A stretch of 64,000 nucleotides of DNA from Escherichia coli. Its GTDB lineage: Bacteria > Pseudomonadota > Gammaproteobacteria > Enterobacterales > Enterobacteriaceae. The DNA lies in the NCBI RefSeq assembly GCF_024700885.2, contig NZ_CP117016.1. One strand, given 5' to 3'. A program made the translations under genes and the position numbers. This document shows, in pieces, positions 48,775 to 54,492 of the stretch. The stretch's first letter is position 1; each line of letters opens with the position of its first letter. The notes under the pieces were generated by a model that made no database searches, was not told the DNA's origin, and was given only the letters and a program-made list of their open reading frames with translations.

Positions 48775-48805
48775 GTCGCATCAGGCATTTATCGCCTGAT
48801 GCGAC
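48775..48805. repeat. REP (repetitive extragenic palindrome) element
   Basis: GTCGCATCAGGCATTTATCGCCTGATGCGAC palindrome between convergent ygfZ and yqfA. Confidence 0.7.
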
Positions 48806-48842
48806 GCGGGTGTGTCTTTTCAGGCCTACAAAGGCACACCCA

Positions 48843-49994: not shown

Positions 49995-51455
<1,461 letters not shown>

Positions 51456-51466
51456 TTACCCGATGT

Positions 51467-51491
51467 GCCTGATGCGCCCCGCTCATCAGGC
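51467..51491. repeat. REP-like imperfect palindrome
   Basis: GCCTGATGCGCCCCGCTCATCAGGC. Confidence 0.5.
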
Positions 51492-51574
51492 CTGGCGCTC
51501 CTGTCATATATTGAACTCCAGGAGTTTATATTTACGCTTCATCCGACACACAAAGCGCACTTTATTAACAAGCT

Positions 51575-51597
51575 AAAAAGGCGCCGAAGCGCCTTTA
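51575..51597 (-). terminator. rho-independent terminator of gcvTHP
   Basis: On the minus strand, AAAGGCGCTTCGGCGCCTTTTT. Confidence 0.7.
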
Positions 51598-51618
51598 GAA
51601 GATAGTCGAATCAGTGAA

Positions 51619-54492
51619 TTACTGGTATTCGCTAATCGGTACGCAGGAGCAGAACAGGTTACGGTCGCCGTAAACATCATCCAGACGTTTCACTGTCGGC
51701 CAGTATTTGTCTGCCACGCCTGCCGGGAATACCGCAACTTCACGGCTGTACGGATGCGCCCACTCGGCGACCAGTTCGCTCTGAATGTGCGGCGCGTTCA
51801 CCAGCGGGTTATCTTCCAGCGGCCAGACACCGGCTTTCACCTGGTCAATTTCTGCGCGGATAGCCAGCATCGCGTCGATAAAGCGATCCAGTTCCACTTT
51901 GCTTTCGGATTCGGTCGGTTCAACCATCAGCGTACCCGCCACCGGGAATGACATGGTCGGCGCGTGGAAACCGTAGTCGATCAGACGCTTGGCAATATCC
52001 AGTTCGCTGATGCCGGTTTCTTCTTTCAGCGGACGAATATCAAGAATACATTCGTGCGCCACGCGACCGTCGCGACCGGTATACAGCACCGGGAAAGCAT
52101 CCTGCAGGCGGCTGGCAATATAGTTGGCGTTAAGAATTGCCACCTGGCTTGCTTTTTTCAGCCCTTCTGCGCCCATCATGCGGATGTACATCCAGCTGAT
52201 TGGCAGGATAGAGGCACTACCGAACGGTGCCGCAGAAACCGCGCCCTGACGGGTTAACATGCCTTCGATTTGCACCACGCTATGACCCGGTACAAACGGT
52301 GCCAAATGCGCTTTCACACCGATCGGTCCCATACCTGGGCCGCCGCCACCGTGCGGAATGCAGAAGGTTTTATGCAGGTTGAGATGCGAAACGTCCGCGC
52401 CAATAAAGCCCGGTGAGGTAATGCCAACCTGGGCGTTCATGTTCGCGCCATCAAGGTAAACCTGACCGCCGAACTGATGCACGACTTCACACACTTCACG
52501 GATCGTTTCTTCGTACACGCCGTGGGTGGAAGGATAAGTCACCATGATGCAGGAGAGATTATCGCCCGCCTGTTCCGCTTTCGCGCGCAGGTCAGTCAGA
52601 TCGATGTTGCCATTTTTATCACATGCCACAACCACCACCTGCATTCCTGCCATATGTGCAGAAGCAGGGTTAGTTCCGTGCGCAGAAGCCGGGATCAGGC
52701 AGATATCGCGATGCCCCTCGTTGCGGCTTTCATGATAATGACGAATCGCCAGCAGGCCCGCGTATTCGCCCTGTGCGCCAGAGTTCGGCTGCATACAAAC
52801 GGCGTCGTAACCAGTCAGTTTCACCAGCCAATCAGCCAGCTGCGCAATCATCTGCTGATAACCTTCTGCCTGTTCCGGCGGGCAGAACGGGTGCAGTTCG
52901 GCAAATTCCGGCCAGGTGATGGGGATCATCTCGGCGGCGGCGTTCAGTTTCATGGTGCAGGAACCCAGCGGGATCATCGCCTGATTCAGCGCCAGATCTT
53001 TACGCTCCAGCGAGTGCATATAGCGCATCATTTCGGTTTCGCTGTGGTAGCGATTAAACACCGGATGGGTGAGGATTTCGTCGTCGCGCAGCATCGCAGG
53101 CTGGATAGAGCGGCTGTCGTGAGCCACGTCTTTGTCCAGCGTGTCGATGTCCAGGCCGTGGTTATCCCCCAGCAGTACGCTGAAAAGCTGCATCACGTTT
53201 TCGCGCGTGGTGGTTTCATCAAGGGTGATCCCAACCGCGTTCAGGATATCGCTACGCAGGTTGATTTCAGCCGCTTCGGCACGCGCCAGTACGCCCGCCT
53301 TGTCGGCCACTTCCACACACAGAGTGTCGAAATAGTGCGCATGGCGCAGCTTCAGACCTTTTTGTTGCAGGCCTGCCGCCAGGATATCGGTCAGACGGTG
53401 AATGCGGTTAGCGATACGTTTCAGGCCAACCGGGCCGTGATAAACGGCATACAGGCTGGCGATGTTTGCCAGCAGCACCTGGGAAGTACAAATGTTGGAG
53501 TTCGCTTTCTCACGACGAATATGTTGCTCGCGAGTCTGCATCGCCATGCGCAGAGCGGTGTTGCCAGCTGCATCTTTCGATACACCGATAATACGGCCCG
53601 GCATTGAGCGTTTGTATTCGTCTTTCGCCGCAAAGAATGCCGCGTGTGGGCCACCGTAACCCATCGGTACGCCAAAGCGTTGCGCCGAACCAAAAACAAT
53701 ATCCGCGCCCTGTTTACCCGGCGCAGTTAACAGCACCAGCGCCATAATATCGGCGGCGACACTGACCACAATTTTGCGTGATTTCAGTTCGCTAATAAGC
53801 GCGGTGTAGTCGTGAATTTCACCAGTAGTGCCGACCTGCTGTAACAGCACGCCGAAGACGTCCTGGTGGTCGAGCACTTTTTGCGCATCATCGACAATCA
53901 CTTCAAAACCAAAGGTTTCAGCACGAGTACGGACCACATCCAGCGTTTGCGGATGCACATCGGAAGCCACGAAGAAGCGGTTGGCATTTTTCAGTTTGCT
54001 GACGCGTTTCGCCATCGCCATTGCTTCGGCGGCAGCGGTGGCTTCGTCAAGAAGAGAAGCCGATGCCATATCCAGACCGGTCAAATCCAGCGTTACCTGC
54101 TGGAAGTTGAGCAGTGCTTCAAGGCGGCCCTGGGAGACTTCAGGTTGATACGGAGTATACGCGGTATACCAGCCCGGATTTTCCAGCATGTTACGCAGAA
54201 TAACCGGCGGTAGCTGCACGGCGGTGTAACCCATGCCGATGTAAGACGTGAAGCGTTTATTGCGACTGGCAATAGCCTTGAGTTCCGCCAGCGCGGCGTA
54301 TTCGGTCGCCGGTGCGCCAACCTGCGGCGGGGTCGCAAGCTGAATATCTTTCGGCACAATCTGGCCGGTCAGCGCGTTTAACGATTGTGCGCCAACGGCA
54401 TTCAGCATTTCTTGCTGTTGCGCGGCGTCCGGTCCGATATGGCGTTCAATAAAAGCGCCGCTGTTTTCAAGCTGGCTTAACGTCTGTGTCAT
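51619..54492 (-). CDS. gcvP: glycine dehydrogenase (decarboxylating), glycine cleavage P protein
   Basis: 957 aa from [22 protein letters not shown]...; ORF-track extension to 54576 rejected. Confidence 0.95.

Follow-up and report, generated by a model that had tools for sequence, protein, structure and literature searches.

The short bglA–gcvP spacer of Escherichia coli as a probable remnant of a deleted outer-membrane protein cassette

Related systems and the layout of the interval

The comparison of E. coli K-12 with O157:H7 made by Perna et al. in 2001 reportedly described "K-islands" and "O-islands", segments that are swapped at the same position of the backbone. The interval between bglA and gcvP resembles this arrangement: K-12 carries about 1.02 kb there (ygfF and its spacers), O157:H7 and the window (the whole stretch of E. 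coli DNA analysed here, 64,000 nucleotides) carry an unrelated 119–121 bp, and the backbone is collinear on both sides. It differs from the islands in that the segment is very small, is free of mobile-element genes, and occurs in at least four states across genera rather than in two. A second relative is the bglA-"transporter" (PF13557)-gcvP locus of Salmonella enterica, in which the distal upstream end of the cassette aligns to a presumed relic in the window; however, the window is without the gene itself, and the relic is only ~75% identical. Within the interval, a palindrome recalls the REP/BIME elements of E. coli, for which the REP consensus is ~35–40 nt long with a flanking GTAG/CTAC tetranucleotide. 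The palindrome has the outer stem GCCTGATG...CATCAGGC and is extragenic, lying just past a stop codon between convergent genes and adjoining a rearrangement junction, but it measures 25 nt, lacks the CTAC/GTAG flank, stands alone and not in a BIME cluster, and is not picked up as a repeat by blastn. The Rho-independent terminator of gcvTHP is also recognisable in the window by a GC-rich stem, a UUCG loop, and a U5 run, 22 nt past the gcvP stop codon; there is nothing unusual about it, and it merely forms the fixed right-hand edge of the variable cassette.

In the window, bglA (plus strand) ends with a TAA at 51453–51455 and gcvP (minus strand) with a TAA at 51619–51621 (TTA on the plus strand). 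The coordinates confirm a gap of only 163 bp (51456–51618), as given in the original prediction, and a REP-like palindrome (51467–51491) and a gcvP terminator hairpin (51577–51596) were both located in the gap where that prediction had placed them. The two genes are annotated after the 100%-identical strain WP4-S18-ESBL-07, and both were confirmed by tblastn. The features of the site are listed below, where "OMP" is the name used here for the PF13557 outer-membrane "transporter" gene.

50022–51455, plus strand: bglA (6-phospho-beta-glucosidase A), left anchor of the variable site; tblastn with K-12 BglA, 99.6% identity
51456–51465, no strand: putative left remnant, the first 10 nt past the bglA stop (TTACCCGATG), common to OMP-type alleles
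51466–51572, no strand: putative relic of the distal upstream (non-coding) end of the OMP (PF13557) cassette, from alignment to the ~135 nt that precede the gcvP terminator in OMP alleles
51467–51491, no strand: REP-like palindrome GCCTGATGCGCCCCGCTCATCAGGC, short and degenerate, right-hand edge of the proposed deletion junction
51498–51526, no strand: variant-specific hairpin CTCCTG...CAGGAG predicted by folding, including the palindrome AACTCCAGGAGTT (51514–51526), then TTTATATTT
51574–51598, minus strand: predicted gcvTHP intrinsic terminator (stem AAAGGCGC/GCGCCTTT, UUCG loop, U5 tract); fold of −13.8 kcal/mol for the 62-nt context
51619–54492, minus strand: gcvP (glycine decarboxylase P protein); tblastn against K-12 GcvP, 99.8% identity

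The C-terminus of BglA in the window reads ...EKL*, as it does in K-12 and in the OMP alleles, and ...ENL* in the O157-type short alleles. The absence of ygfF from the window also held, as tblastn of YgfF against the whole 64 kb found no YgfF-like coding sequence. The E. coli OMP protein, searched by tblastn against the same 64 kb, gave no match, and the OMP cassette is recognisable there by its non-coding ends only.

The premise of the original prediction, that K-12 has ygfF between bglA and gcvP, proved accurate: in MG1655, bglA (3043662–3045101) and gcvP (3046168–3049041) are separated by 1066 bp rather than 163 bp, and this gap holds ygfF (b2902, minus strand, 3045158–3045901), whose product matches the NCBIfam model NF007273 (SDR oxidoreductase) with 531.6 bits. 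The window and K-12 cease to be homologous immediately after the bglA stop codon (51455/51456) and match again from 51573, with the A-run and hairpin of the gcvP terminator. Between these breakpoints the window has 117 bp (51456–51572; the query used in the searches for this segment was 51456–51574, 119 bp), versus 1,018–1,020 bp in K-12, where the segment comprises a 56-bp spacer with an ordinary hairpin, ygfF, and a 266-bp spacer with GC-rich repeats. The difference between the window and K-12 is a replacement, not a clean indel. At the left edge of ygfF, K-12 has the ordinary hairpin (ACCGGATGCAA...TTGCATCCGGT) and not the REP-like element of the window, and a REP is found at neither ygfF boundary. 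The edges of ygfF are instead the bglA stop codon and the gcvP terminator, so the K-12 alignment gave no coincidence of the ygfF boundaries with the REP-like element, at which the original prediction had suspected a gene loss or gain.

In strain E28, ygfF is also present, followed by a ygfF–gcvP spacer of 59 bp, and the spacing is similar in other genera. The K-12 spacer (L001:5903–6168) is ~207 bp longer than that of E28 (266 vs. 59 bp); the additional stretch is made up of GC-rich inverted repeats with ~7 occurrences per genome, which have been catalogued as G-quadruplex/hairpin elements (PMC5100583). The ygfF genes of K-12 and E28 differ at 9.3% of nucleotides, whereas their flanks differ at 2–4%, indicating that the ygfF alleles are old or of mixed origin.

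Allele classes in E. coli and in other genera

The population scan covered 5,426 complete E. coli genomes, in 5,425 of which the flanks are present, and its counts mirror database sampling rather than natural frequencies. The ygfF cassette was found in 3,053 genomes (~56%), the short form (the 119-bp segment) in 2,372 (~43%; 2,349 at ≥80% coverage), and an OMP cassette at the same site in 17 genomes plus one artefact. The three classes are essentially exclusive and sum to the total, with ~6 odd genomes, one of them an assembly gap. E. coli WB61 (L086:3660–3680), with two annotated pseudogenes, was considered as a deletion reaching from OMP into gcvP and rejected as an assembly artefact, because the junction contains Ns and the apparent OMP/gcvP deletion is therefore an assembly gap. 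Among labelled examples, K-12 and O111:H8 carry ygfF, and O157:H7 carries the short form. The short form itself exists as two sequence variants, which are ~85% identical to each other and share the same junction: the variant of the window is present in 423 genomes at ≥95% identity, and the O157:H7-type variant in 1,949 genomes at 80–90% identity. Strain 755 is a recombinant between the two.

With ~2,349 of the 5,426 genomes carrying it, O157:H7 included, the short form is not strain-specific, contrary to the suggestion of the original prediction. These frequencies mean that ygfF is not a core gene of E. coli and that K-12 is not the reference state for ~43% of the sequenced strains; absence relative to K-12 should not be taken as a recent strain-specific deletion, and an empty spacer may bear the scar of a gene other than the one that the reference genome suggests. 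Strains like that of the window are without the PF13557 outer-membrane protein and without the YgfF enzyme, whose sole tested activity is that of a glucose 1-dehydrogenase in vitro (PMC10645960). A literature search on ygfF and phylogroup found no report of a bglA–gcvP polymorphism.

Four states of the site were found when the comparison was extended to other genera, in an outgroup sample that was made up of species representatives and was without E. fergusonii, S. bongori, and most of the cryptic Escherichia clades.

ygfF only (among the matches listed): Citrobacter werkmanii, Citrobacter sp. FP75, Pseudocitrobacter, Phytobacter, an Enterobacter MAG, Kluyvera, Pseudescherichia, "Escherichia sp." ESNIH1, Pluralibacter, Superficieibacter
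OMP only: Salmonella enterica, E. albertii, L004 (another Escherichia lineage), 17 E. coli genomes
ygfF and OMP in tandem (gcvP-ygfF-OMP-bglA): Citrobacter freundii
Neither (short form): the window and ~43% of complete E. coli genomes

The order bglA> <ygfF <gcvP is found in at least 11 loci from ~9 other genera, and K-12 therefore did not gain ygfF de novo. In the genera with ygfF only, YgfF is 77–85% identical to that of K-12 (among the matches listed); its presence at the same site at this level of identity indicates that ygfF is old at this position in the family. The YgfF homologues fall into two groups, one from E. coli, Shigella, and unclassified Escherichia with ≥94% identity and one from the other genera with ≤85%, a gap that fits vertical descent inside Escherichia rather than a recent import. 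Several loci in other genera carry inserts or a damaged ygfF (L011, L013, L016, L017, L018, and L021): inserts of 3.6–4.1 kb lie between bglA and ygfF in an Enterobacter cloacae strain, Cedecea neteri, and Enterobacter sp. Ag1, a 3.2-kb insert lies between ygfF and gcvP in Enterobacter sp. BIGb0383, Enterobacter sp. Bisph1 has an internal-deletion relic of ygfF, and a soil MAG has a truncated ygfF.

The OMP gene is a minus-strand ORF of 297–298 aa that matches Pfam PF13557 (Phenol_MetA_deg) and is labelled "transporter" in RefSeq. One of its carriers, L004, is ~94–95% identical to E. coli in bglA and gcvP. Within E. coli, the MS1718-type OMP alleles (L084:3551–4444; MS1718 and ~10 similar genomes) have a stop at codon 45, and the gene is probably a pseudogene in these strains. 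This stop suggests that loss of the OMP gene is continuing in E. coli. RefSeq gives a shorter CDS of 249 aa from an internal start for the MS1718-type gene. Two other differences lie near the site: in C. freundii (L092–L095, 4850–8396), bglA and yqfB are separated by an additional gene of the RpiR type (HTH_6/SIS), and E. coli Z0117EC0005 (L085:1–860) has two hypothetical-protein genes directly upstream of trhA, where other strains have ygfZ, which may represent another insertion nearby.

Origin of the short segment

The 119-bp segment is no more similar to the ygfF cassette of K-12 than expected by chance (local alignment score 19; shuffle mean 19.2), and a search for ygfF remnants in it against the K-12, E28, Citrobacter, and Kluyvera cassettes gave scores at the level of the shuffles in every case. 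Against the ends of the OMP cassette, in contrast, its local alignment score is 53, compared with 19.9 ± 2.0 for shuffles. The segment aligns to two stretches of the OMP cassette: ~10 nt directly following the bglA stop codon and ~105 nt directly preceding the gcvP terminator. At the left end, TAATTACCCGATG pairs with TAACTACTGCATG of the E. coli OMP alleles (9/13 matches); in an alternative register, TTACCCG pairs with the left arm of the terminator hairpin of the OMP alleles, so the left breakpoint is placed to within ~10 nt (~51456–51466). On the right, the block from 51466 through the conserved terminator is 73–77% identical to the OMP alleles, with the best match in ...CATCCG..ACACAAAGCGCACTTTATTAACAAGC; every extant OMP allele falls within this range, Salmonella at ~75%. 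The GC content of 51500–51574 is 38.7%, versus 51–56% in the flanking genes. Missing between the aligned ends is ~1.23 kb, which in the OMP alleles contains the bglA/OMP terminator hairpin, the OMP gene (44% GC), and most of the OMP upstream region (30% GC).

On the strength of these alignments, we consider it likely that the spacer is what was left of a deleted OMP-type allele, at an old multi-state site between the bglA stop codon and the gcvTHP terminator. The ancestor would have been an OMP-only allele, in which a deletion of ~1.23 kb gave rise to the empty form. This deletion would have taken the bglA/OMP terminator hairpin, the OMP gene, and ~300 bp of the AT-rich OMP upstream region, and would have spared ~10 nt next to bglA and ~105 nt towards gcvP, with the short REP-like palindrome at the junction. 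ygfF would already have been missing from the parental OMP-type allele and so would not have been lost in the same deletion. Since the relic is only 73–77% identical to the present OMP alleles, the deletion appears to be old and the exact parental allele to be absent from the sample; an identity of 73–77% is about the divergence expected of vertically inherited non-coding DNA between these genera. The direction of change, OMP loss versus OMP insertion, is suggested by parsimony, because the empty site is seen only in E. coli among the matches listed. A search for ygfF remnants in the upstream region of the OMP-only alleles found nothing significant. This region likewise has no significant homology to the ygfF–OMP spacer of C. 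freundii, in which only the first ~200 bp beside the OMP start align loosely, and the non-coding DNA is thus too diverged for the OMP-only layout to be linked to the tandem layout.

The REP-like palindrome at the proposed junction consists of the arms GCCTGATGCGC and GCTCATCAGGC (51467–77 and 51481–91), which are 91% complementary; the left-arm sequence TGCCTGATGCG can still be recognised in the L004 OMP allele. One copy of the pattern GCCTGATGCG-N-CATCAGGC is present in the window, versus 0.00 expected in shuffles. The palindrome has the outer stem of a REP, GCC(G/T)GATG ... CATC(A/C)GGC, but neither its full length of ~35–40 nt nor the GTAG/CTAC flank, as it ends after 25 nt and is followed by CTGG. 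A canonical REP at 48794–48830 (~36 nt, ending ...CAGGCCTAC) shares its outer stem and head, and the 10-nt head motif of REPs occurs four times in the window against 0.56 expected. In blastn, the median genome has a single place that matches the 119-bp segment, a figure in which relatives of the palindrome are not counted, as it is too short for BLAST.

We compared the cassette of E. coli Z0117 (L085:3504–4899) with that of Salmonella (L091) at the nucleotide level, with the following identities.

OMP gene: 96.1%
455-bp OMP upstream region: 91.2%
bglA–OMP spacer: 91.5%
Flanking trhA, yqfB, bglA, and gcvP: 80.6–87.6%
Neighbouring spacers: 24–73%

Because the cassette is more alike than its flanks, it appears to have been exchanged between the two genera after their split, and the locus would show how flanking homology lets a small cassette pass between Salmonella and Escherichia. 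The amino-acid identity of OMP is only 93%, indicating that the nucleotide changes, few as they are, are often non-synonymous. This ratio of change (7% of amino acids versus 4% of nucleotides, in a gene of 96% nucleotide identity between core genes of 81–88%) could be a sign of selection acting on a surface protein, such as a receptor for phages or colicins. A broader reading of the exchange is that the site is a long-lived trans-species polymorphism, whose cassettes (ygfF, OMP, both, or neither) persisted or passed repeatedly among Escherichia, Salmonella, and Citrobacter by homologous recombination, a post-speciation transfer of OMP between Salmonella and Escherichia among them. We hold this reading only tentatively and think it rather doubtful. 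Variation between bglA and gcvP is ordinary accessory-gene turnover at a conserved site.

The deletion could also be read in reverse. The short allele would then be the original vacant site, OMP would have arrived as a cassette of terminator hairpin, gene, and ~300 bp of upstream DNA, inserted between 51465 and 51466 beside the REP-like element, and the 105 nt would be flanking DNA and not a relic. REP elements are recognised targets of insertion, and the palindrome is intact in the short form only; moreover, the cassette looks foreign in composition (44% and 30% GC) and has moved between genera. However, the empty state is confined to E. coli among the matches listed, with OMP in Salmonella, E. 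albertii, and L004 and with ygfF or both genes in other genera, and neither a target-site duplication nor a mobile-element end is visible at the junctions. A vacant site would itself need an origin and yet bears no trace of ygfF, and the nonsense codon in the MS1718-type OMP gene points to ongoing loss. Insertion into an ancestrally empty site is thus, in our judgement, unlikely.

The original prediction had instead proposed a direct event of loss or gain affecting ygfF, that is, a recent deletion from a K-12-like layout at a REP site, or a gain of ygfF by K-12. ygfF is indeed present in K-12 and not in the window, a REP-like palindrome does lie within the spacer, and the true internal-deletion relic in Enterobacter sp. 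Bisph1 indicates that direct loss of ygfF happens at this site. Yet the 119 bp are unlike any part of the ygfF cassettes of K-12 or E28 and match the OMP cassette instead, the short form is spread over ~2,349 genomes in two diverged variants, and neither ygfF boundary in K-12 has a REP, which makes a simple loss or gain of ygfF very improbable. What stands of the proposal is the position, since the palindrome adjoins an indel junction; the junction, however, would record the loss of a different gene, OMP, and not of ygfF.

Hairpins and the present role of the spacer

The terminator hairpin that bounds the putative OMP relic on the right, AAAGGCGC-CGAA-GCGCCTTT, has arms at 51577–84 and 51589–96 that are 100% complementary. 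On the gcvP strand, it folds into a stem with a UUCG loop, followed by UUUUUAGCUU; written as the minus strand, it reads AAAGGCGC-UUCG-GCGCCUUU and then UUAGCUU, with 5 consecutive U when the U's of the stem are counted, and the stem ends 22 nt past the gcvP stop codon. It thus has the GC-rich stem-loop and the U-run just past a stop codon that define an intrinsic terminator, and it is expected to end the gcvTHP transcripts. The hairpin is kept in K-12, E28, the OMP alleles, and Salmonella, and Enterobacter sp. Bisph1 has GGGCGCCGAAGCGCCC. A consensus scan for promoters and terminators called neither of the two hairpins and no promoter-like site; the gcvP terminator was missed because A-U pairs were counted as stem.

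The second hairpin (51498–51526), which is followed by the run UUUAUAUUU, belongs to the window variant, as the short allele of the O157/B2 type shows clustered substitutions at this site and is without the palindrome. It is a possible weak terminator of bglA in the window variant only. The REP-like hairpin and this second hairpin with its U-rich run probably serve to terminate or stabilise the bglA transcript, to judge from their predicted folds, and the 163-bp spacer would now be merely the spacer of two convergent genes. That it is kept for a small RNA, a small protein, or a regulatory site of bglA or gcvP is highly improbable: its plus strand (51456–51600) does fold better than shuffles (z = −4.06), ORFs of 46–53 codons overlap it, and the short and OMP alleles agree well over ~40 nt beside the terminator, but the fold signal is accounted for by the REP-like and terminator hairpins, an Rfam scan of 51300–51750 found no family even at E ≤ 1, the consensus scan gave no promoter-like site, the short variants are 15% divergent, a 2-nt indel between them interrupts the 46-codon ORF, and the segment is wholly missing from the 56% of genomes with ygfF.

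The perfect 13-nt palindrome AACTCCAGGAGTT (51514–51526) within the second hairpin arises from a tight cluster of differences relative to the O157-type AGCTCGCAATATT, and it looks like the product of a single multi-base event, for example template switching, rather than of independent substitutions. Elsewhere in the window, a canonical REP pair lies downstream of ygfZ (48777–48830), and the ygfZ–trhA spacer, which is 76 bp long in the strain identical to the window and 195 bp long in K-12, is a further case of minor length variation at a REP site.
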